Below, in pieces: positions 3,351 through 36,391 of a DNA stretch of 64,000 bases. Origin of the DNA: a bacterium (lineage in GTDB: Bacteria; Patescibacteriota; Minisyncoccia; Phycocordibacterales; UBA9973). A program made the position numbers and the translations under genes. Location: positions 355,733 to 419,732 of the forward strand of contig JBAWZD010000001.1 of the NCBI GenBank assembly GCA_037143195.1, written 5' to 3'. The notes under the pieces are model-generated. The model had not been told where the DNA came from, did no database searches, and saw only the letters and a list, made by a program, of their open reading frames with translations. Positions within the stretch are counted from its first letter, which is position 1. Each line of letters opens with the position of its first letter.

Positions 3351-4532
3351 TTAGTGGTGCCACTTTTCGTATTTTTTCGCAATTGATTCGAGTGCTTTGA
3401 GCGCTCGTTCGATATCTTTTTGATGCGTTGTTCGTCCGATTGAAAATCGCACACTTCCCCATGTTGCATCGTCGCCTTCACCGTACAGAGCTTTGAGTAC
3501 GTGCGAGCCCGTGTCTTTGGTAGAGGCACAAGCACTTCCCATTGAGCATTGTATGCCACGCGAGTCGAGCTCAAGCACGAGGAGCTCGCTCTGAATTCCT
3601 CGTATCGAAATATGAATATTGTTTGGCAGGCGAAATTTTCTACTACCATTTATGCGCGCGTTTGGAATTCGTTTTTCAATCTGTTCCAAAAATGTATCGC
3701 GAAGCAGGATGAGTCGCTGTTTTTCTTCTTCCTGAATCGATCGCGCACTCGTGAGTGCTTTGGCGAGGCCAATACATCCAACAATATTTTCTGTACCCGA
3801 ACGAAGTCCTGATTCTTGCCCGCCTCCATACATGATTGGTGCGATCGGTGTTCCGCGATGCACATAGAGCACAGCAATGCCACTTGGTCCTCCGATTTTG
3901 GTTCCGTTAAACGTCATTAGGTCGACACCAAGCTGTTCAACATTACAATTCTCGTACTGTATGGCTTGGCACGCGTCTGTGTGAAAGAGCGGATAGTGTT
4001 GTGCGCTATCTGTATTTGTTTTTTTGAAATGACGAATCTCTTTTGCCACATCGCGAATCGATTGGATTGTTCCAATCTCGCTATTGCCGTATGCGATTGA
4101 AACAAGAATTGTTTCTGGTCGGAGCGATGCACGCAATTGCTTCATATCAATGCGACCAGTCTCGTCTACCTTGAGATAGGTGACATCCGCTCCGACCGCC
4201 TCAAGATGATGGCACGCTTCGAGCACGGCAGGATGTTCCGTTTCGGTCGTAATAATATGGAGAGTCTTGTTTTGAAACAGTGGATTCATTCGCGCGTGCT
4301 TGAACACGCCAAGAACGGCGAGATTGTCGGATTCAGTGCCGTTCCCTGCAAAGAAAATTTCGCTTGGGTGGGCAGAGAGTGCTGTGGCAATGTCGGCGCG
4401 CGCGCCCGTAAGGGCGCGCGCGCTTTCTACCCCCTTCGAATGTATCGAACTCGCATTCATAGCCCAAAAACTCGCCCAAAAAGTAGCCCATCGGACCTCG
4501 GGGAGCATTGGCGCGAAAGCCGCATAGTCCAT
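3351..4532 (-). CDS. cysteine desulfurase (NifS/IscS family, class V aminotransferase)
   Basis: Contains ...HTDACQAIQ...LMTFNGTKIGGPSGIAVLYV...SGTEN, typical of NifS/IscS. Start placed at the ATG at 4530-4532 (MDYAAFAPML...), which matches the usual MxYLDxAAT start. The track's longer N-terminal extension is unlikely. Confidence 0.85.
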   Translation of the reverse strand: MDYAAFAPMLPEVRWATFWASFWAMNASSIHSKGVESARALTGARADIATALSAHPSEIFFAGNGTESDNLAVLGVFKHARMNPLFQNKTLHIITTETEHPAVLEACHHLEAVGADVTYLKVDETGRIDMKQLRASLRPETILVSIAYGNSEIGTIQSIRDVAKEIRHFKKTNTDSAQHYPLFHTDACQAIQYENCNVEQLGVDLMTFNGTKIGGPSGIAVLYVHRGTPIAPIMYGGGQESGLRSGTENIVGCIGLAKALTSARSIQEEEKQRLILLRDTFLEQIEKRIPNARINGSRKFRLPNNIHISIRGIQSELLVLELDSRGIQCSMGSACASTKDTGSHVLKALYGEGDDATWGSVRFSIGRTTHQKDIERALKALESIAKKYEKWHH

Positions 4533-6986: not shown

Positions 6987-6990
6987 TGTG

Positions 6991-7071
6991 TGCCCGAGGT
7001 GGGACTCGAACCCACACTCCTTACGGAATTCGATCTTAAGTCGAACGCGGCTACCATTACGCCACTCGGGC
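6991..7071 (-). tRNA. tRNA-Leu(UAA)
   Basis: The reverse complement folds as a cloverleaf: gcccgag acceptor, anticodon loop ctTAAga, long variable arm, ttcgagtcc T-loop. Confidence 0.8.
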
Positions 7072-7097
7072 ATTCCGACGCACTATACCGCACAATG

Positions 7098-7168
7098 AGG
7101 CCTGGGCGAGAATCGAACTCGCGATGAGGGATTTGCAGTCCCCTGAATTACCACTTTTCTACCAGGCC
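7098..7168 (-). tRNA. tRNA-Cys(GCA)
   Basis: Reverse complement ggcctggtagaaaagtggtaattcaggggactGCAaatccctcatcgcgagttcgattctcgcccaggcct. Acceptor ggcctgg pairs with ccaggcc, and the anticodon loop is ctGCAaa. Confidence 0.8.
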
Positions 7169-7225
7169 GTGTCGAAACACTCAGGAACTATACAGGTATT
7201 AGGGCGCGAAATCAAATCAAAAAGC

Positions 7226-7253
7226 TTGAAATTTCTTATAAAAAAGGTATACT
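7226..7253 (+). promoter_or_regulatory. sigma70-like promoter for the tRNA-Lys/tRNA-Leu(UAG) pair
   Basis: TTGAAA, 16-nt spacer, TATACT, about 19 nt upstream of tRNA-Lys. Confidence 0.5.
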
Positions 7254-7271
7254 GATGACTGTTTTATAGTT

Positions 7272-7344
7272 CCGCCCATAGCTCAGCTGGTAGAGCACTC
7301 GCCTCTTAAGCGATTGGTCGTTGGTTCGATTCCAACTGGGCGGA
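7272..7344 (+). tRNA. tRNA-Lys(CUU)
   Basis: ccgccca acceptor, D-arm gctcagctggtagagc, anticodon loop ctCTTaa, T-arm ggttcgattcc, 3' acceptor tgggcgg plus A. Confidence 0.8.
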
Positions 7345-7371
7345 CAACAGTGGGCGTACAATGTGCATCAT

Positions 7372-7453
7372 GCCGGGATGGCGAAATTGGTAGACGCACT
7401 TGCCTTAGGAGCAAGCGGGGTGACCCATGGAGGTTCAAGTCCTCTTCCCGGCA
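7372..7453 (+). tRNA. tRNA-Leu(UAG)
   Basis: gccggga acceptor, anticodon stem cttgc/gcaag with loop ctTAGga, long variable arm cggggtgacccatgg, ttcaagtcc T-loop. Confidence 0.8.
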
Positions 7454-7460
7454 CACATAC

Positions 7461-25183: not shown

Positions 25184-25420
25184 TCACTCATTCTCTCCCG
25201 GCATAGTGATAGAAAAAATCTTGTGCGGACTCTGGTGTCCGGAAATGAGTCGAGCGGTATTCTCAGGCACGCCAAGCTCTCGCGCAATGAGCGTACGGAT
25301 GCGTACATTCGCGAGATTGCGCTCGGCTGGCTCTCGGACGCTGATCTCATAGCGGTCAGGCCCGAGTCTCGTCACAAGCTCCTTTTTGGCCCCTGCCGTA
25401 ACATTGACTCGGATGTACAT
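25184..25420 (-). CDS. DUF167/YggU family protein
   Basis: MYIRVNVTAGAKKE..LVTRLGPDRYEISVREPAERNLANVRIRTLIARELGVPENTARLISG. Start placed at the ATG at 25418-25420. Confidence 0.7.
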   Translation of the reverse strand: MYIRVNVTAGAKKELVTRLGPDRYEISVREPAERNLANVRIRTLIARELGVPENTARLISGHQSPHKIFSITMPGENE

Positions 25421-25513
25421 ATCTTTGCATTTTAGCACTTTTTTTGTTAGTATTTTTGAGTTCGTGACGCGTGTCCAAATGTGCGCCGAAGCGTGCCCTT
25501 GAAAACCCAATAT

Positions 25514-25829
25514 TCCCCTGTAGCTCAGCGGTAGAGCAATCGACTGTCAGTAAGGCAGCTTCCTAGAGAAATCTAGGTCGAAAACGAGGTGAACTCGGTG
25601 AAGCCCACGAAAGCAATTTCTGGGGTAATACCGAGCCAAGCTCTGATATCAAATTCAGAGAAGGTGTAGAGACTATCCCCTTTGCGGGAGTACTCCGACA
25701 TCTGTCGGCGGAAGCGCCTCGGCCCTCACAGACCAGAAATGGTCAGAGGGTATGATATAGTCCACCCCTTTAAGTAATTTTAGGACAAGTGTAATCGATT
25801 GGTCGCAGGTTCGATCCCTGCCGGGGGAG
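25514..25829 (+). tRNA. tRNA-Asn(GUU) interrupted by a group I intron in the anticodon loop (exons 25514-25547 and 25792-25829)
   Basis: 5' exon tcccctg ta gctcagcggtagagc a atcga ctgt. 3' exon taa tcgat tggtc gcagg ttcgatc cctgc cggggga g. Spliced product is 72 nt with anticodon loop ctGTTaa, discriminator G, and acceptor tcccctg/cggggga. Confidence 0.8.
25548..25791 (+). ncRNA. group I self-splicing intron (~244 nt) inserted between tRNA-Asn positions 35 and 36
   Basis: 5' exon ends in U and the intron ends in G (omega-G). A candidate P1 forms between exon ctgt and intron ggcag near the intron 5' end. The conserved group I core elements are present: ttcagagaaggtgtagagactatcc (R/P7-like) and atgatatagtccac (S element GAUAUAGUCC, 25754-25763). 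Confidence 0.75.
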
Positions 25830-27533
25830 CAGAGTAGGACACACGTCCTCAAAAACCGCATTTCGTCCTGAAGTATCAAGTATATTTTTAGGTTCGAACT
25901 GCGGATTTTTTGTTTTTGCTTCAAGCAATCCTTTTTCGATCGTCTTATACAGAATTCCCTTTGTAATTATTACTTTTTTCTCGGTTAAAGTTAGGTTCGA
26001 ACCCAAACTAGAGAGTGCCTCCGTAATCTCTTCAAAATCGCCACTTTTGATAACTTCTTCCAATTCCGTGAGAATCTCGAGCTTATTGGTAACATCTCTC
26101 ATATCGAGCTTAAAGTCTTGTCCTACGCCCATTCTGGCGCGAACATTCGCCATTTCTCCCTTTATTTCTAACTCTTTTTCTCTAAAGCCCTCCTCGTCCG
26201 TAAAACCTCTTGTGTACGCATCAAGTAATCGTCCATGCTGTTCTTCGAGTCGCTTCATATCCTGATGCCAGCTGTTTTCGATCGTTTTGTCAGTCGTTTT
26301 CTGCTTATGTTCTAATATCTCTATGTTATCAATACACCACCTCGCAAGAGGTGGTGAGAGAGCAATTGTGCGGATATAATCATCTACAACCTGTTCACCA
26401 AGGACACTTTCGCTGAAGCTTTTCGCTGGACAATCAGGCACTTTCTTTTTTGTGCAGTGATAATAGATATAATTTAAAACTTTATTCTTGATACTACGTA
26501 AACCACTACCACATTTGGGACACGCACTTTTATTCGACACAGCAAACTTGTTTTTGCAATTACCACACATAATCTGCAGTTTCTTTTCAGCAGTAACTGA
26601 ACCACCGCAGTGTCCGCATTTTAAGAAATTCTTGTACGGAAATTCTTCTCTATGGGTGGATGATCGCGGATTACCTCTACGACGAATCAATTTGAGAATT
26701 TTGTAATGCTCTCGTTCTGTTATCATCCGTGGCACTAAGGGATTCACTTCATACCTGACAGTGTTCCCATCCGAATCTTTACCGAAGAAGAATCCTGCAT
26801 AGAATGGATCACTGAGCATCTTGTACGTCAGCGAAAGTTTCAATGGTTTACCTCCAAACTTCTTTCTCGCAACACTATGAAGCATAAAATCGTTCACAGC
26901 AACACGGTGCAATTCTCTGACTGAATATTTCTCTGTTAGAAACATTTGAAATAGTTTTTTGACGATTTCAAATCTTTCTGGATCAATCAACGTTTTTCGA
27001 AACCCCTTTTCTCCTCGATCATTCGCATATCCGATTTTTGCAATTCCGGGCGGATATCCCATCTGTCGCTTTTTCACAAGCCCGCGCTTAACGTTCTCGC
27101 CCTTGTTGTCGTTCTCCATCTTTGCCTGACTACAGAGCATCGTGAAGAAAAACTTGTCAGAGGGTGTATTTCGGAATATCTGTTGTTTGGTAATTATATA
27201 TTTTAATTTTTCCTCATCTAACAAATCAACCAGTCGCCCAGCATCTCCAGCATTTCTCGAAAGACGATCAGGGTGCCACGTGATAATTGCTTGCACGCTA
27301 CCTTTGTTAATATCTTTAACCATCTGCTCAAAGACAGGTCGTTGTCCTGATTTCTTTGCTGATTTTGCTTCGGTCAATTTTTCGCTTTCTTGTAATTCAA
27401 AACCATAGCTTATAGCAAGTTTATCTGTCTCAGCTTTTTGTGATTCTATCGACAATGCCTGACGTTCTTCTTGCTCGCTTGATTTGCGATTATATGAGCG
27501 TGCTTTAAGTCCTTTGAATTCACCTTTATCCAT
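25770..27533 (-). CDS. large serine recombinase (phage-integrase-type, resolvase/invertase catalytic domain plus recombinase and zinc-ribbon domains)
   Basis: N-terminus ARSYNRKSSEQEERQALSIESQ (catalytic Ser region), central recombinase domain, Cys cluster CGHCGGSV...CGNCKNKF...CPKCGSG, coiled-coil tail. The 3' end (…LPRQGSNLRPIDY) is encoded antisense to the tRNA-Asn T-arm and 3' exon. Confidence 0.85.
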   Translation of the reverse strand: MDKGEFKGLKARSYNRKSSEQEERQALSIESQKAETDKLAISYGFELQESEKLTEAKSAKKSGQRPVFEQMVKDINKGSVQAIITWHPDRLSRNAGDAGRLVDLLDEEKLKYIITKQQIFRNTPSDKFFFTMLCSQAKMENDNKGENVKRGLVKKRQMGYPPGIAKIGYANDRGEKGFRKTLIDPERFEIVKKLFQMFLTEKYSVRELHRVAVNDFMLHSVARKKFGGKPLKLSLTYKMLSDPFYAGFFFGKDSDGNTVRYEVNPLVPRMITEREHYKILKLIRRRGNPRSSTHREEFPYKNFLKCGHCGGSVTAEKKLQIMCGNCKNKFAVSNKSACPKCGSGLRSIKNKVLNYIYYHCTKKKVPDCPAKSFSESVLGEQVVDDYIRTIALSPPLARWCIDNIEILEHKQKTTDKTIENSWHQDMKRLEEQHGRLLDAYTRGFTDEEGFREKELEIKGEMANVRARMGVGQDFKLDMRDVTNKLEILTELEEVIKSGDFEEITEALSSLGSNLTLTEKKVIITKGILYKTIEKGLLEAKTKNPQFEPKNILDTSGRNAVFEDVCPTLLPRQGSNLRPIDYTCPKIT

Positions 27534-27591
27534 ATAGGTTACATAACAACACATACCAAGTAATGGCTTCGAAGTCCATACCCAGCGGTTA

Positions 27592-27896: not shown

Positions 27897-28655
27897 CTAA
27901 AACCTCTTATTTTTGAGTTTGTTGTACTCAGTGACAACCCGCTTAATTGTCGCAGTACTGACCTTAATCTTATCTTCATTACTTAAGATTTTTTGAATAA
28001 TCATTTCCTTTGTCTGATCCACGCACGTTGGATCAAGTTCTTTTCGGGATTTTCTAGACAGGGCGTAGATTTTTTCATCTCTTTCTTTGTTTTGAAGTGG
28101 ATTCATTTTTTCAGGTTTTTTCTGTGTTTGCTCCATGAGAGAATCCTGAATTCTTTCCCAGTTCTCCTTTATGAATTCTTGAACATCTTTGTAATTTGTC
28201 GCTTCAGGAAAAATAAAAAGTTTAACGAATGGTTGCTTCACCGCGACATAAAGATCATCTAGACATTGAAATTTAGAACCGTATTTGTACGCATCTGTAT
28301 CCAAGACAGCAATAGTGTTCTTTGTTTTTCGTTTGATTGCTCCATCTTCATGTTTTTTCATTTTTCTGGTTTCGGGATCACCGAAATAAAGATAGTCAAA
28401 TAAGAAATCTCTATCTAACAATGACACTCCGTACTTTTTTGCAAGATTTATTTGTTCAAGGAACAGATCTTCTGTCATATTTGCATCTAGTCCTTTTATC
28501 CAATGAGTTTTGAGTATCTCTTTCTCGAATCCAAATATTGGCATCTTAAATTTACGACGTATATTGGCTACATCTTCCCAAAAAACGTCACTGAAGGTTA
28601 TCTTATATAACTGATCCTCAAGCCGAGATACTGTCTCGGCGTCACCGCTATTCAT
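27897..28655 (-). CDS. hypothetical protein (island)
   Basis: 252 aa, AT-rich codon usage, no recognisable motif. Confidence 0.5.
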   Translation of the reverse strand: MNSGDAETVSRLEDQLYKITFSDVFWEDVANIRRKFKMPIFGFEKEILKTHWIKGLDANMTEDLFLEQINLAKKYGVSLLDRDFLFDYLYFGDPETRKMKKHEDGAIKRKTKNTIAVLDTDAYKYGSKFQCLDDLYVAVKQPFVKLFIFPEATNYKDVQEFIKENWERIQDSLMEQTQKKPEKMNPLQNKERDEKIYALSRKSRKELDPTCVDQTKEMIIQKILSNEDKIKVSTATIKRVVTEYNKLKNKRF

Positions 28656-28923
28656 ATACCCAAAGTGTACCAGAAAGTGCCGTTTATGCTATGATAATTT
28701 TGTACCGCAAGGTATTCGAACAATTTAATATGAAAGTAACCTAAACCATCGCTTCGGCGGTGGCATGGTGAAAAAATCCGACTAAGGAGCAAACAACCCA
28801 TCATATGGGGGCTTCCTTAGTCGGTCATACGTCGAAAGGCGTATGGATGTCGCAAGACATCACCCCTGTGATGGGCTTTTTGCTGTCCATTTAGGGGGTT
28901 TTATCAGACTTTAAAATAACATT

Positions 28924-29127
28924 ATGGAAATAGCTATAATCATTTTATTAGTGATCATTGTTTTTCAATTATCGGCAATGAATGGGAATTTAAGAATCAT
29001 CGATCAAACACTGGAGGGTATCAGAGAAATGTCTGAGATGAGTGCTGGCCAACGCTGGGAGCACGATTTAAAAATTGACGATCCTGAAGAATATAAACGC
29101 TACCAAAATAGGGATCGTTCTTATTAA
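28924..29127 (+). CDS. hypothetical small membrane-anchored protein (island)
   Basis: 67 aa, N-terminal TM helix MEIAIIILLVIIVFQLSA. Confidence 0.35.
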   Translation: MEIAIIILLVIIVFQLSAMNGNLRIIDQTLEGIREMSEMSAGQRWEHDLKIDDPEEYKRYQNRDRSY

Positions 29128-30304: not shown

Positions 30305-33271
30305 TTATTTATTCATCTTCTTGACCACATATTCGAACACTTTCTCTTGGACGAATTTCTTGAGTTCTGGACTCTGATCAAGTTTTTGATACAAGCTGAA
30401 GTGATTGTCGAGCACGCCAACAAGCTCGTCTTGAAAGAGCTGATCAAATTTCAATTTCGCAGAATCCTTGCTGTTATTTTCTACAGAACCTCTCAGCACT
30501 TCACTTGCAAGAAGTCGCTTACTCAAGTCATTGAGAATAACTCGATCACCATCAGTGAAATTCGTACCGTATCGTTCATTGATTTCTTTTATGATTTTTG
30601 ATAGCGCGTCTCGTTCATCTTCGGTTGAACCCTTACTATCTCCACTACCCATTGGATCGATAACTCCTTCAGTATTTTCAAGTTGAACATTCTTTTCTCC
30701 AGTCTTTTCAATTCTATATGTTGCCATATCTATCGCTTCAAGCACTTCATACGGAAGTGGATTTTCTCGTCTTGGTAATTTCTTAATCAGAAACTTCAGG
30801 AAGATATATAGCTTCTCAAGCTGAGGATCTTCAAATGTAACAATCTGCGAGATGAATGCGTATTTTTTGAGATAGTCGAATACAGTTGTTTTGAAACTTT
30901 CCATTTCTTCTTCAGTAAGATTTTCTTCTTGGATTCTTGAAACGACACCATCAATTATGTGATTGAGCTTATCCGGTGTTGCACCTGCGAAGTATTCATC
31001 TATAAACCCATTTACCTCGAAATCCGTGAAGAACTTGAATCCACGCACCTCACGCTCGAGATCGTGCAGTATATTCGGATTAGTAGCTTCTGAGAGCACT
31101 GTGGTGGTGTAATAGGGCTGAAAAGCGTCCTTAATCTCGTCTGTTTGATTCACAAAGTCGAGAACGAACGTATCGTCCTTTCCGTAAGTAGTTCGGTTCA
31201 ATCGTGAGAGTGTTTGAACTGCACCAACCCCTCCAAGCTTCTTATCGACATACATCACCGAAAGCAACGGCTGATCGAATCCTGTTTGATATTTTTCCGC
31301 TACGATCAAAAACTTATACTCGTCTTTTTTGAATTCTTCAGTAGTTTGAGTATCGGACACCTTGTTCATCTGCGCTTCAGTATATTCCAACTTCGTGTCG
31401 ACATCTTTTACGGTACCAGAAAAAGCCACTAATGCTTTATGGTGGTATCCTTTTTCCTTGAGATATTTATCAAACGCAATCTTATATCGAACAGCGTGGA
31501 GACGAGATTTTGTTACCACCATCGCCTTTGCCTTGCCACCGACAAGTGAAGCTATTTTTTCTTCAAAGTGCTCCACCATGATCGCTGTCTTTTTATCGAT
31601 AGCATGCTCATGGCGCTCCACGTATCCGATCATCAATCGCTGTGCTTTTTTCTTGTCGAATTCAGGATCGTCTTCAACTTTTTTCAGAAGCCCGAAGTAT
31701 GTTTCGTATGTCGTGTAATTCTTCAAAACATCAAGAATGAATTTCTCCTCAATAGCTTGTTTCATTGAATACAGAGAGAACGGTATATATTTTCCAGTGA
31801 GTGGGTCTTCAGCTCCAAAGAGTTCAAGTGTCTTTTGTTTTGGAGTTGCAGTGAACGCAAAGAAGCTCAAGTTTGGTGAAGCGACCTTTCGCGCTTTCAT
31901 GCGCTCAATGATTTGATCTTCCACTGTCTTGAATACTTTTTCTTCTTTCTCCGTTTCTTTTTCTGCTTCGTCCAAAGTAAGTACTTGTCGCAAATCGGCG
32001 GCAGATTCTCCGGATTGCGAAGAATGAGCTTCGTCAATGATGACTGCGAATTTTTTGCCCTCCACTTTTTCTATTGCATCAACAATCACAGGGAATTTCT
32101 GCAGAGTCGTCGTAATAATTCTTACTCCTGCTTCCAATGATTCCTTGAGTTCTTTTCCTCCATTCTCTATGTGTTTTACAAGCCCTGTCACCTGACTGAA
32201 GCTCTTTACCGTGTCTGAAAGCTGTTTATCGAGCACACGGCGGTCGGTAACGACAATAACGCCATCAAACACGTTCTTGCTTGCAATATCGTGTAATTCG
32301 GCAAGACGATGCGCTACCCATGCAATGGTATTACTTTTTCCTGATCCAGCGCTGTGTTGAATAAGATAGTTTTTCCCTGAGCCATTCTCCTGAGCATCTA
32401 ACACGATTTTTCTCACTGTCTCCAATTGATGATAACGAGGGAAGATTATTTTTTCTTCCTTACTTTTCTTTCCGTTTTTGTCTTCTTTTTCTTCGGTGAT
32501 ATCTTGTATGAAATTCCCGAGTAAATCAAACACACTGTCTTTTGACCAGACATCTTCCCAGAGATAGTGGGTTTTGTATTTTCCTTTTGGTGCATCAGGA
32601 TTGCCAGACGAACCATTGTTGCCTTTGTTGAACGGCAAGAAATATGTCGTAAGACCAGTGAGTCGAGTCGTCATATATGCCTGTTCAGTGTCTACTGCAA
32701 AGTGAGTCAGGCATCGCTTGAAGGATAGGAGTTTCTCTTTTTGATCACGATCCGTTCTGTATTGAGAAATAGCATTGATAACATTCTGTCCTGTAAATTG
32801 ATTTTTGAGTTCCACAGTAAAAACAGGGAGTCCGTTCACGAAGATAACCATGTCTAGAGAGTTCTCGTTCTTTGCGCTGTATTTGACCTGACGCATAACA
32901 CTCAATATATTTCCAGCGTAATCAGCGAGTGTTTCCGGATTTTTGTCATTTTCTGGCTTGAAGTGCGCAAGATGAAAACGCACCCCCCGATCGGTAACCC
33001 CATCACGCAGAACACTCAACAAGCCACGAGAAAGAAGCTCCTCATCAATTCTAGCCAAGAATTTACTCTGTGCTTCTCCTCCGTACTGCTCAACAATCTT
33101 CTGCCATGCTTCATTCTGAGTATTTTGAATAAACTCCAAAACCAGCTCTGTATCCATACAGAGAGTTTTATCGTAGGAAGAATTTAATCTCGAACGATAT
33201 TTGTGGAGCTCAGCAAGTTCCTTCTCGATGAATTCTTCAAATCCTTTTTCTTTTGTGTTTGTTTTTATCAT
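30305..33271 (-). CDS. hsdR: Type I restriction enzyme R subunit
   Basis: 988 aa. N-terminal PD-(D/E)xK nuclease (DMVIFVNGLPVFTVELK). SF2 helicase motifs: motif I IQHSAGSGKS, DEAH box FAVIIDEAHSSQ. C-terminal helical domain. Confidence 0.93.
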   Translation of the reverse strand: MIKTNTKEKGFEEFIEKELAELHKYRSRLNSSYDKTLCMDTELVLEFIQNTQNEAWQKIVEQYGGEAQSKFLARIDEELLSRGLLSVLRDGVTDRGVRFHLAHFKPENDKNPETLADYAGNILSVMRQVKYSAKNENSLDMVIFVNGLPVFTVELKNQFTGQNVINAISQYRTDRDQKEKLLSFKRCLTHFAVDTEQAYMTTRLTGLTTYFLPFNKGNNGSSGNPDAPKGKYKTHYLWEDVWSKDSVFDLLGNFIQDITEEKEDKNGKKSKEEKIIFPRYHQLETVRKIVLDAQENGSGKNYLIQHSAGSGKSNTIAWVAHRLAELHDIASKNVFDGVIVVTDRRVLDKQLSDTVKSFSQVTGLVKHIENGGKELKESLEAGVRIITTTLQKFPVIVDAIEKVEGKKFAVIIDEAHSSQSGESAADLRQVLTLDEAEKETEKEEKVFKTVEDQIIERMKARKVASPNLSFFAFTATPKQKTLELFGAEDPLTGKYIPFSLYSMKQAIEEKFILDVLKNYTTYETYFGLLKKVEDDPEFDKKKAQRLMIGYVERHEHAIDKKTAIMVEHFEEKIASLVGGKAKAMVVTKSRLHAVRYKIAFDKYLKEKGYHHKALVAFSGTVKDVDTKLEYTEAQMNKVSDTQTTEEFKKDEYKFLIVAEKYQTGFDQPLLSVMYVDKKLGGVGAVQTLSRLNRTTYGKDDTFVLDFVNQTDEIKDAFQPYYTTTVLSEATNPNILHDLEREVRGFKFFTDFEVNGFIDEYFAGATPDKLNHIIDGVVSRIQEENLTEEEMESFKTTVFDYLKKYAFISQIVTFEDPQLEKLYIFLKFLIKKLPRRENPLPYEVLEAIDMATYRIEKTGEKNVQLENTEGVIDPMGSGDSKGSTEDERDALSKIIKEINERYGTNFTDGDRVILNDLSKRLLASEVLRGSVENNSKDSAKLKFDQLFQDELVGVLDNHFSLYQKLDQSPELKKFVQEKVFEYVVKKMNK

Positions 33272-33275
33272 AAAT

Positions 33276-35150
33276 TTATTCTTTCAATTTAGCATGCACC
33301 GACAACACAAAATTATAGAAGGTTGTATATTTATCTTGTATGATTTGCTTGGTGTTTGTTTTTTTAACGACATCAGACAATACTTTGTTTGTAATCAAAG
33401 ATTTTAATTCTTTTAGATCGTCATTCGGGCTTATTTTTCTTAGTGATTTTAGTTTATCTTTTACTTCATCTAAAACAGCTTTCGTTGAATCAATTTGTAT
33501 TATTACAGAAAAAAGTTCGTTTACTGATTCAATAATAATTTCAGATGGTAGTAAATCTTCTATTGTAAAGTAAGCTTTACTTTGAGCTGAAAAATCATTC
33601 AATTCAAAGATATTATTTTTCAAAGAAGAGTTATCCTTAATCATGTTATTTTTTATACTCTTACCTTTTTGATCTGAGTCAAGAATAAAAAAACCTTTAA
33701 CTAGTTTATTATCGAAGAATTTTGCATATGTAGGCATTTTGTCAGCACTCTCAGAAGATATAGAACCTATATCTAAAGGTTTTATGTCAGATTTAAATTT
33801 TGATGTAAAAACATCAAACAAATCCTTATCGGTTCTACCTTCAAAAACTAACATATATGGTTTTATGTGTTCGTACACTGATGTTCCGAGTGCTTCATAT
33901 AATACTTCTTCTTGATATGGATTTTCAGGATCAATAGAATACGCACTTGTAACAGAACCTTTCGATACACTTCCACATTTCTCAACTCTTACATGTCGAT
34001 TTAAACTTTTTCGATCAACCATATAGATTGAATGCGTTGAAACAAAAACTAAATTGTTTTGCGCGATATTTAGTATCTCATCTCTAAGATATCTTACTCC
34101 GCTTGGGTGCAAGTGAACTTCGGGTTCGTCCAAGAGAATAACTTGGTTTTTTAAAATTGATTTTTTGTTTTCAACAGAAAGGTTAAGTAATATTGATACG
34201 AGTTGTCGAAATCCATCACTACGTTGAGACATTGCATATTTAGGTGTTGGATCATCCTTATCTTCTACGTAAACCGAACATGATAAATCTTGCTCGATTT
34301 GTATTCTAATCGAGATATTGTGTTCCGACCAAATCAAATTTATATGCTCAGTGATTGCTCTGGAGAGATCTTCCTGTAACTCCATTCTATTTTCTGCACT
34401 TTGTGATGCAAGAGAAACTGCGTAAGGGATATCATCTCTTTCAGCTATTTTAAAGATATTTCGAAGTGGAATTGACTTTGATTGATCTGTTGCAAATTCA
34501 TTCAGATTTACAGGTTTATTTATTAGATACTTGTCGTCATTAGGAGCCCAAAAAATTATTTTTGGAATACCTAAATCAAAAATTGTAGATTTTTCTGATA
34601 AAATCTTCTCTAAAATTTCCTTGTTTAAGATTCTTGCACCCGCACCAACAAGTGTGACGATACTTTCTTCTGTAACTGGTTCTTCACCCTGATATATTTC
34701 TTTGATTAACTTAATAGCGTTTTGTCCATCAATGAAATAGAGCCCGAGAGTTTTTATGTCATCAATTTCTATAAAAAATTGATCTATTCGCTTGTTCTCG
34801 AAATCAAAAACAACCACGCTTTCTATATTTTTAATCTTTATTTCTTTTGCCAAATCAAGAGGGATACCATTTTTACTCAAGTGGTCAACATAAAATTGCC
34901 AATTTTGAATTCCTAAGTTTAAACGAACTGATACTGATTCTTTTTTCTTCTGTGCCGATTTAAGACAATCAGTATTGTAGTTAATTGTTTCTCCTTTTGA
35001 TATAAGATTTATCGCTTTAAGTATATTACTTTTACCCGTCTCGTTAACACCCAAGAGTATATAGCAACTCTTATTGGCAATCGAATCAGTAGTCAAAAAA
35101 ATCTCTTTAATACTTCGGTAGTTATTTATTTTTATACTGTTTATTTTCAT
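33276..35150 (-). CDS. OLD-family ATP-dependent endonuclease (ABC-type ATPase fused to a Toprim/DUF4435-like nuclease; PARIS/Gabija-like), embedded between hsdS and hsdR
   Basis: MKINSIKINNYRSIKE... Walker A LLGVNETGKSNILKAI, signature-like SDGFRQLVSILL, Walker B/H-loop VILLDEPEVHLHP, VFVSTHS. C-terminal Toprim-like motifs MLVFEGRTDKDLF and GFFILDSDQKG. Confidence 0.75.
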   Translation of the reverse strand: MKINSIKINNYRSIKEIFLTTDSIANKSCYILLGVNETGKSNILKAINLISKGETINYNTDCLKSAQKKKESVSVRLNLGIQNWQFYVDHLSKNGIPLDLAKEIKIKNIESVVVFDFENKRIDQFFIEIDDIKTLGLYFIDGQNAIKLIKEIYQGEEPVTEESIVTLVGAGARILNKEILEKILSEKSTIFDLGIPKIIFWAPNDDKYLINKPVNLNEFATDQSKSIPLRNIFKIAERDDIPYAVSLASQSAENRMELQEDLSRAITEHINLIWSEHNISIRIQIEQDLSCSVYVEDKDDPTPKYAMSQRSDGFRQLVSILLNLSVENKKSILKNQVILLDEPEVHLHPSGVRYLRDEILNIAQNNLVFVSTHSIYMVDRKSLNRHVRVEKCGSVSKGSVTSAYSIDPENPYQEEVLYEALGTSVYEHIKPYMLVFEGRTDKDLFDVFTSKFKSDIKPLDIGSISSESADKMPTYAKFFDNKLVKGFFILDSDQKGKSIKNNMIKDNSSLKNNIFELNDFSAQSKAYFTIEDLLPSEIIIESVNELFSVIIQIDSTKAVLDEVKDKLKSLRKISPNDDLKELKSLITNKVLSDVVKKTNTKQIIQDKYTTFYNFVLSVHAKLKE

Positions 35151-36391
35151 ATTTTTACTTTTCCTGTTACGACATTCGATATTAACGACGACTTAAACTC
35201 TTTTAAAATTTCAATTGATTGTTCTGTCTTGCGGATAGCAGTATCAAAAAGCTTTGTTTTTTCGTTTAGTTTATTTACGATTTCTTTTTGTTTTTCTAAA
35301 TTAGGAAGTGAAAATTCATAGTTTCTAACGAATGAAGTAGTAACTCGTTTTTGTCCTGCTGTCCCGCGCATTTCAACTTCGCCTGATTTTCTGAATTTAT
35401 CAGAAAAAATTAGATAGTATAGATAATCAGCCAGTATCGAATCTTTCGGACGCATAACCATGAATTCGGTTGTGCCAAAACCAAACCCATTCTTTAATCC
35501 TTTCATTACTCCGGCTTTTCCGTTTTCGTAGCATGGAGTAATCTTGGCTAAAACAACATCTCCATTTCGAAAATAGGTAAACCCATCTTTTACCTCTTTG
35601 TATTTTTTTTCTTGTAGTTCAAGTTTTCCGTTCTCAGATATAGCTTCCATTGGTACAAACGAAACAGTATCTTCTAAGTCAGTGTCTGAAACAACTTTTT
35701 TTGTGGGATTTACTTGTACATGATTTTTAATTTTTACAAAATCACCTTTGATATCCATAATCATATGATTAACCAAAGCGGTGCGCCTTTCTTTTAGCAA
35801 TTCAATTTGTATTTCTTTTTTTTCTATAATTTGATCGATAAACGATGTTTTTTCATCAAGATAATTTGCAATTTTAGTTTGTTCTTTTGATTCAGGAACC
35901 GTAATTAAGATTCGTTTCATTTCGCTCTCACGAGTAGTCCAGAGATCGTCAACAATGCCTCGCCCCCAGCGATAAAACTCTTCAGAGAATAGATTACTTC
36001 TAAACAAATAATGAAAATACTTTGAGTCAAAAGTCGGGTTTCTTTTTCGGAGAACGTTGTAAACAAGAGAAACTCCTCCCTCATATTCTGACATTCCAAC
36101 AGCACCTTTTCTATCTGATCGCCCATTGATAGCTATATCACCAATCTTTACATGTTTTCGCAAGCTACCCTCGGCAACCTTGGCAGCATTTTCTATTTGC
36201 TTCTTAATACCACCATAGGTGACTGACAGAGGTTCATAATTTTCTTCAGTTACCTTATCATGGGGGAAATCAAATACTGATACAACTTTTTGCGATTCCC
36301 AACCTTTAGGAATTTTACCCAACCACTCAACACCCGAATCTTTGTATTCAGGATATTTATCGTATTTTTTTGTGAGTTTTAGTGTTTGCAT
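35147..36391 (-). CDS. hsdS: Type I restriction-modification specificity subunit (two target-recognition domains)
   Basis: 414 aa, duplicated TRD architecture with conserved central and C-terminal coiled-coil spacers. The 4-nt ATGA overlap with the downstream OLD gene indicates translational coupling. Confidence 0.9.
   Translation of the reverse strand: MQTLKLTKKYDKYPEYKDSGVEWLGKIPKGWESQKVVSVFDFPHDKVTEENYEPLSVTYGGIKKQIENAAKVAEGSLRKHVKIGDIAINGRSDRKGAVGMSEYEGGVSLVYNVLRKRNPTFDSKYFHYLFRSNLFSEEFYRWGRGIVDDLWTTRESEMKRILITVPESKEQTKIANYLDEKTSFIDQIIEKKEIQIELLKERRTALVNHMIMDIKGDFVKIKNHVQVNPTKKVVSDTDLEDTVSFVPMEAISENGKLELQEKKYKEVKDGFTYFRNGDVVLAKITPCYENGKAGVMKGLKNGFGFGTTEFMVMRPKDSILADYLYYLIFSDKFRKSGEVEMRGTAGQKRVTTSFVRNYEFSLPNLEKQKEIVNKLNEKTKLFDTAIRKTEQSIEILKEFKSSLISNVVTGKVKI

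Follow-up and report, generated by a model that had tools for sequence, protein, structure and literature searches.

What does the interrupted tRNA gene at 25514-25829 of the window, the 64-kb stretch of DNA analysed here, encode, and can its product be put together? On the + strand a tRNA body is found in two pieces, 25514-25547 and 25792-25829, which are separated by an insert of 244 nt. The locus is very probably a tRNA-Asn(GUU) gene in which a group I ribozyme of 244 nt, lacking an endonuclease gene, is inserted between U35 and U36 of the anticodon. Its three parts are the following:

25514-25547, + strand: tRNA-Asn(GUU) 5′ exon, comprising the acceptor 5′ strand, the D arm, the anticodon stem 5′ strand and C32 U33 G34 U35 (from the sequence and from ARAGORN on the ligated exons)
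25548-25791, + strand: group I intron of 244 nt with no ORF (from the RF00028 match and from pairing across 15 homologues)
25792-25829, + strand: tRNA-Asn 3′ exon, comprising U36 A37 A38, the anticodon stem 3′ strand, the variable loop, the T arm, the acceptor 3′ strand and G73 (from the sequence and from ARAGORN)

In the tRNA body the acceptor stem is UCCCCUG/CGGGGGA, the D arm GCUC/GAGC and the T arm GCAGG-UUCGAUC-CCUGC, and the halves of the anticodon stem are AUCGA at 25539-25543 and UCGAU at 25795-25799. CCA is not encoded in the gene, and the discriminator base is G73. When the exons are ligated, ARAGORN recognizes a tRNA-Asn(gtt) with the loop CUGUUAA, and the junction of the predicted product reads ...AUCGACUGUUAAUCGAU...; the body also has the U1-A72 pair, which together with G73 is presumably as in tRNA-Asn, the comparison being with the E. 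coli tRNA. ARAGORN with default settings missed the split gene in the window, and a consensus promoter/terminator scan did not find a + strand promoter for it. Four conventional tRNA genes are clustered at 6990-7454 of the window, two per strand: the minus strand has Leu-UAA and Cys-GCA, the plus strand has Lys-CUU and Leu-UAG, and the Leu-UAA gene is intronless.

The nature of the insert was addressed with the Rfam model RF00028 (Intron_gpI), which, in a search of 551 nt (25400-25950), aligned end to end over model positions 1-253, with 49.7 bits and an E-value of 1.1e-11. The score is 0.3 bit below the gathering threshold of 50 bits, which is a curation convention and not a biological feature; the intron is absent from the scan of the whole window at the gathering threshold, and it is seen only in a scan in E-value mode. 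In the cmscan alignment there is a 37-nt insertion relative to RF00028, corresponding to a stretch with two hairpins between P7 and P3′. U (25547) is the last base of the 5′ exon and G (25791) that of the insert; the segment UCAGAGAAGGUGUAGAGACUA, which resembles the R element, lies at 25655-25675, and the S element is placed in the list below. A first-pass annotation, made from the letters of the sequence, had named these stems, the 244-nt spacing, the U and G boundaries, the S and R-like segments and a short P1, and all of them were found at their places; its proposal of a group I intron, for which it had pointed to Intron_gpI as a check, is borne out both by this match over the full model, albeit just under the cut-off, and by covariation in 15 homologues.

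The secondary structure, from P1 to P9 and with the pseudoknot formed by P3 and P7, was drawn by hand on the window sequence, and it was compared with a MAFFT alignment (A2) of 15 sequences, namely the window, six loci of public genomes and eight published sequences. The elements of the structure are listed here; percentages refer to cells of this alignment that hold a standard pair.

25544-25558, + strand: P1, in which C32-U35 and the intron base C1 (CUGU(C), 25544-25548) pair with the internal guide GGCAG at 25554-25558
25562-25577, + strand: P2 hairpin of 6 bp with a GAAA tetraloop; 6 of 6 pairs compensatory, 97.8% paired
25585-25591, + strand: P3 5′ strand, pairing with 25715-25721; 99% paired, three pairs compensatory
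25594-25635, + strand: P4-P5 domain, with P4 formed by 25594-25599 and 25630-25635, and P5/P5a at 25604-25624 with a GCAA tetraloop
25636-25664, + strand: P6/P6a hairpin; P6 invariant, P6a with 6 of 6 pairs compensatory and 93.3% paired
25671-25675, + strand: P7 5′ strand (GACUA), with which the R element GGUGUAGAGACUA ends; it pairs with 25758-25762; five pairs invariant in 15 of 15 sequences
25676-25708, + strand: two small hairpins between P7 and P3′, one P7.1-like (25676-25689) and one P7.2-like (25695-25708)
25715-25721, + strand: P3 3′ strand, pairing with 25585-25591
25723-25750, + strand: P8 hairpin, its two helices 81.5% and 65.4% paired; 7 of 9 pairs compensatory
25755-25764, + strand: S element GAUAUAGUCC, consisting of J8/7 and the P7 3′ strand (UAGUC, 25758-25762); invariant columns in A2 and in the Rfam alignment
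25767-25784, + strand: P9 hairpin with a GUAA tetraloop; 7 of 7 pairs compensatory, 86.1% paired
25791, + strand: omega G, which closes the intron; all 15 sequences of A2 have G in this column

Across the 15 homologues, standard pairs occupy 90.1% of the cells, against 33-44% when the partners are slid by 1-3 columns, a difference that is inflated because the window, on which the structure was drawn, is itself in the alignment; this does not inflate the compensatory counts, and changes on both sides were found in 51 of 75 pairs. The covariation score is 0.486, with values of at most 0.10 in the controls, and none of 500 shuffles reached the observed values. The compensatory changes fall mostly in P2, P3, P4, P6a and P9, while P7 never varies. 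Support differs among the helices: P4 is 95.6% paired, with compensatory changes in five of its six pairs; P5 (75% paired) and P5a (37.5%) are both poorly aligned by MAFFT, so that it is mainly the window sequence itself that supports them, and P5a and the distal part of P8, being variable in length and poorly aligned, are weakly supported. The P7.1-like hairpin occurs in 10 sequences, where it is 100% paired, and the P7.2-like one is 75% paired, with compensatory changes in all five pairs. Hairpins of this kind between P7 and P3′ (P7.1/P7.2) are a hallmark of subgroup IA, and the two hairpins of the window intron are consistent with an assignment to it.

The point of insertion needs more care. 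With GU in front of the insert and UG at its end, the boundaries can formally be placed in two registers, 33/34 and 35/36. With the former, the gene would be a tRNA-Thr(UGU), having a 5′ exon that ends in ...CGACU and a 3′ exon that starts with UGUAAUCGAU; indeed, intron-aware ARAGORN (aragorn -i) reports a tRNA-Thr(tgt) i(33,244), and in this register, too, the 5′ site follows a U and the 3′ site follows a G (25789). However, U33 faces an A in P1, and the wobble that marks the 5′ splice site is U35·G (25547·25555), present in 15 of 15 sequences; four pairs of P1 are invariant, whereas the next pair (+1), between the first intron base and its guide base, covaries (GC in six sequences, CG in five, AU in three and UG in one). 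The homologous intron at L057, in a tRNA-Asn gene which ARAGORN miscalled as Asp, ends in ...AAAAUG before UAA; as the bases preceding its terminal G are AAAAU, a terminal G is obtained only with 35/36, and 33/34 would end that intron in A. Natural intronless genes with these exons read CUGUUAA, and the U1-A72 pair and G73, presumably as in tRNA-Asn of E. coli, point away from tRNA-Thr. In addition, the same miscall by ARAGORN and tFind has been documented for a homologue, where sequencing of the spliced product disproved it (Nakagawa et al., mSystems 2026, PMC13011429; preprint 10.1101/2025.07.03.662931). A tRNA-Thr gene is scarcely credible here. The three lines of evidence from P1, from the omega G of L057 and from the intronless alleles settle the predicted register as 35/36 of tRNA-Asn, where the first reading of the sequence had put it.

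The intronless alleles come from metagenomes. The exact 3′ exon was found in 11 metagenome contigs, five with introns of 216-563 nt and six intronless; the latter read ...CGACUGU joined to UAAUCGAU..., and in four of them (L122, L126, L131 and L132) the 5′ exon is also identical to that of the window. In two of these contigs the gene lies at the syntenic HisRS-Def-Fmt-HPF-DUF167 locus, with neighbours of 50-76% amino-acid identity to those of the window:

L122, 4384-4455: intronless tRNA-Asn gene on a metagenome contig
L131, 3441-3512: intronless tRNA-Asn gene on a metagenome contig

The intronless genes share the predicted junction, and thus the predicted ligation product is identical to a natural tRNA-Asn gene of close relatives; together with the ARAGORN call on the ligated exons, these six contigs, two of them syntenic, uphold the earlier identification of the host gene as tRNA-Asn(GUU). 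As judged from these sequences, the intron is polymorphic for presence and absence at one orthologous locus, syntenic relatives having the same exons and no intron, and such a polymorphism could help to date its gain or loss in Saccharibacteria. Exact look-ups of the neighbouring proteins found Def and Fmt in only one 4.2-kb Logan contig (L001, SRR12676973); the HisRS ORF matched no contig, probably because of a difference in the start codon. The L001 contig stops at window position 25538, inside the tRNA 5′ exon and just before the anticodon stem, which is consistent with a branch of the assembly graph between tRNA-Asn variants in that sample.

A split gene might also be a decaying one, a non-functional tRNA pseudogene inactivated by its intron, with an intact tRNA-Asn gene elsewhere doing the work. 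Two U·U mismatches in the P9 of the window copy would agree with decay, the gene borders an integrated island, and the view is limited to 64 kb of the genome. Within these 64 kb, however, ARAGORN found no second tRNA-Asn, and intron-containing and intronless copies for one anticodon rarely occur in the same genome (PMC13011429). Nothing is damaged in the core helices, in the invariant nucleotides of J and P7, in U35·G or in the omega G, and intronless genes of relatives match the exons at 100% identity. The P9 of L068, a locus of a Saccharibacteria MAG, is similarly weak, with two U·U mismatches at shifted positions; the weakness is therefore a trait of the lineage. Decay of the gene is very improbable, and a working split tRNA-Asn gene is the reading followed here.

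For such a gene, the mechanism with the best support is the usual group I splicing of a pre-tRNA, which may be proposed to run as follows. The precursor would be transcribed as a single RNA and the intron would fold into its P3-P9 core, while C32-U35 and the first intron base would pair with the guide GGCAG to form P1, placing U35·G at the cleavage site. A free, exogenous guanosine bound in P7 would attack after U35; the terminal G (25791) would then replace it in the P7 site, and the 3′-OH of U35 would attack the 25791/25792 bond. U35 would thereby be joined to U36, restoring the GUU anticodon in a 72-nt tRNA, to which CCA would be added.

To the right of the tRNA lies an island of low GC content, which abuts the tRNA-Asn 3′ end and spans about 25.83-48.4 kb; across this border the GC content goes from about 0.47 to 0.33-0.41. 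Besides a DUF3800 protein, the island encodes:

25770-27554, − strand: large serine recombinase ORF, with Resolvase and Zn_ribbon_recom domains
30305-33271: HsdR of a type I restriction-modification system
33276-35150: AAA_15/AAA_21 ATPase
35147-36391: HsdS
36640-38394: HsdM
38409-39545: Fic protein

An RNA of the LOOT family (Rfam RF03000) is also predicted inside the island, at 28738-28861 on the + strand, between the ORFs 27897-28655 (− strand) and 28924-29127 (+ strand); the match covers the full model with 93.1 bits, against a gathering threshold of 46.4, and an E-value of 1.6e-16, and a search of the literature on LOOT RNA found nothing useful on its function.

The recombinase frame is not closed before it reaches the tRNA, so that the 3′ exon and the end of the intron are covered in antisense by its last 18 codons, an overlap already noticed at first pass and confirmed by the coordinates of the ORF; these last 18 residues, PRQGSNLRPIDYTCPKIT, are encoded by the tRNA, and the similarity to the homologue at L021 stops at the tRNA boundary. 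This overlap, and the fall in GC content directly to the right of the tRNA, could mean that the island itself supplied the intron and the 3′ exon by replacing the 3′ half of the tRNA, so that the split gene would be an artefact of the junction. Yet the intron occurs without the recombinase at L031, L120, L124 and L130, and the recombinase lies beside an intronless allele at L122 and L132. The window, L068 and the metagenome loci are identical as far as the 3′ end of the tRNA, their divergence setting in only beyond ...GGGGGAGC(A), and neither a displaced tRNA 3′ half nor an att repeat was found in the window, allowing up to 3 mismatches and with short-word BLAST. The explanation fails because intron and recombinase occur independently of each other and the window holds no displaced tRNA fragment, and it is left with practically no chance.

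Recombinases with 25-44% identity are found at the same position and in the same orientation at tRNA-Asn in L021, L057, L068/L127, L125, L122 and L132; including the window, seven tRNA-Asn loci, some with the intron and some lacking it, have this arrangement with the recombinase at the edge. These findings suggest that the tRNA-Asn 3′ end may be a recurrent attachment site for elements with such recombinases, independently of the intron. A stronger version, to which only a small chance is given, would see in it a dedicated attachment site for diverse large-serine-recombinase elements of Patescibacteria, which carry the recombinase gene at their extreme edge, with a frame that crosses the junction into the tRNA antisense strand. 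If this were true, the last ~18 residues of the recombinase (PRQGSNLRPIDYT...) would be host-encoded only in the integrated state, and integration or excision would swap the C-terminus of the enzyme, which could act as a built-in switch of directionality or expression. No relatives of the recombinase were found in viral contigs, either with the single sequence or with a profile of three sequences; thus these scans offer no evidence for the island being a phage, nor an attP for comparison. A literature search on serine recombinases at tRNA genes in Saccharibacteria found nothing relevant.

The distribution of related introns was explored by scanning one genome per GTDB species with a 22-base core pattern, GAGCCAAGC-N10-40-GGTGTAGAGACTA, which matched at least 120 loci (L002-L121). 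The matches listed come mostly from introns in tRNA-Leu(UAA) of Pseudomonadota and Acidobacteriota, the other host tRNAs being Met/Ile2 CAU, Arg CCU/UCU, Thr, Phe, Lys, Ser and Asn (L051, L057). The pattern also matches at L043, in a MAG labelled as a Methanosarcinaceae archaeon, where ARAGORN found no split tRNA; either mis-binning or a group I intron of an archaeon could account for this match. The sequences nearest to the window among the matches listed all belong to Patescibacteria MAGs (L068, L031, L051, L008, L120, L077, L057 and L021), and the nearest tRNA with its intron among them is L068, with exons 100% identical and an intron about 83-85% identical. L120, also from a Saccharibacteria MAG, shares the Def-Fmt-DUF167-tRNA-Asn synteny, at 40-65% amino-acid identity. 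Judging from these relatives, the host would most likely belong to Saccharimonadia.

The P1 loop (L1) has only 5 nt in the window, leaving the intron without a homing endonuclease gene, whereas L068, L077, L120 and L021 have an insertion of about 320-340 nt at this place. In L068 the insertion (3602-3934) encodes an HNH-type endonuclease ORF with a CANCHxExH motif and a weak Pfam match (PF01844, E 7e-4); the inserts of L077, L120 and L021 are similar and have the same CANCH motif. The HNH reading frame of the L1 insertion ends inside the P1/P2 region of the ribozyme. Since close relatives carry the HNH ORF in L1 and the window copy lacks it, the latter is probably immobile and vertically inherited.

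Group I introns at this very site are already known. Williams 2020 (10.1101/2020.01.27.920355) is credited by Nakagawa et al. with the first listing of the site, as type ‘Asn.4Ug’, which is the site of the window intron; that tFind survey maps introns by the regularity of the exons and by U-1 and omega G, extending the four classical types to 21, and it is a catalogue without splicing experiments. Among 95 complete Patescibacteria genomes, Nakagawa et al. found 15 tRNA-Asn(GUU) and three tRNA-Asp(GUC) genes split at 35/36, often miscalled by ARAGORN and tFind as Thr(UGU) or Ala(UGC) with an intron at 33/34; nearly all of these introns were classified as subgroup IA by subgroup covariance models, and four of them contain HNH genes, unlike the window copy (PMC13011429). 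For the one from GCA_016700035.1, a gel and the sequence of the ligated tRNA demonstrated precise self-splicing in vitro, which was abolished by changing the omega G to C (PMC13011429). This intron is about 60% identical to that of the window and has a single longer hairpin between P7 and P3′ in place of two; from its activity we infer that the window copy would splice as well.

The likeness to the published introns extends to the host tRNA, the insertion site, the U-1 and omega G boundaries and the miscall by ARAGORN as Thr(UGU) at 33/34, as well as to the GCAGC guide, AGAGACUA, GAUAUAGUCC and a GNRA loop on P9; the size of the window intron is within the published range. In the alignment A2 it is 49-67% identical to the eight published sequences, six of which have P7.1/P7.2-type hairpins or a shorter form of them, as in the window; the supplementary tables of PMC13011429 (Table S3) have no entry identical to the exact intron and exon strings of the window. 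Default ARAGORN, tRNAscan-SE and the Rfam gathering threshold either miss the gene or call it tRNA-Thr, and the genome would therefore seem to be devoid of tRNA-Asn; such an apparent loss would harm estimates of genome completeness, a point also made in the published work (PMC13011429).

The classical IC3 introns resemble the one described here, which is presumably self-splicing like them: both are compact ribozymes, about 200-250 nt long, that sit in the anticodon loop and use nucleotides of this loop for P1, and both have the strings GAGCCAAGC...GGUGUAGAGACUA, matched in at least 120 GTDB species. However, the classical introns interrupt the cyanobacterial tRNA-Leu(UAA) at 34/35 and the Azoarcus tRNA-Ile and Agrobacterium tRNA-Arg at 36/37, whereas the window intron lies at 35/36 of tRNA-Asn and has extra hairpins between P7 and P3′, and its homologues were classified as IA and not IC (PMC13011429). 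Host and site had been called unusual in the first-pass annotation, which holds for the classical literature only, as tRNA-Asn, position 35/36 and Patescibacteria have since been published together with in vitro splicing (PMC13011429, 10.1101/2025.07.03.662931). The window intron is one more member of this published and experimentally validated class, and it leaves the current understanding of group I introns unchanged.
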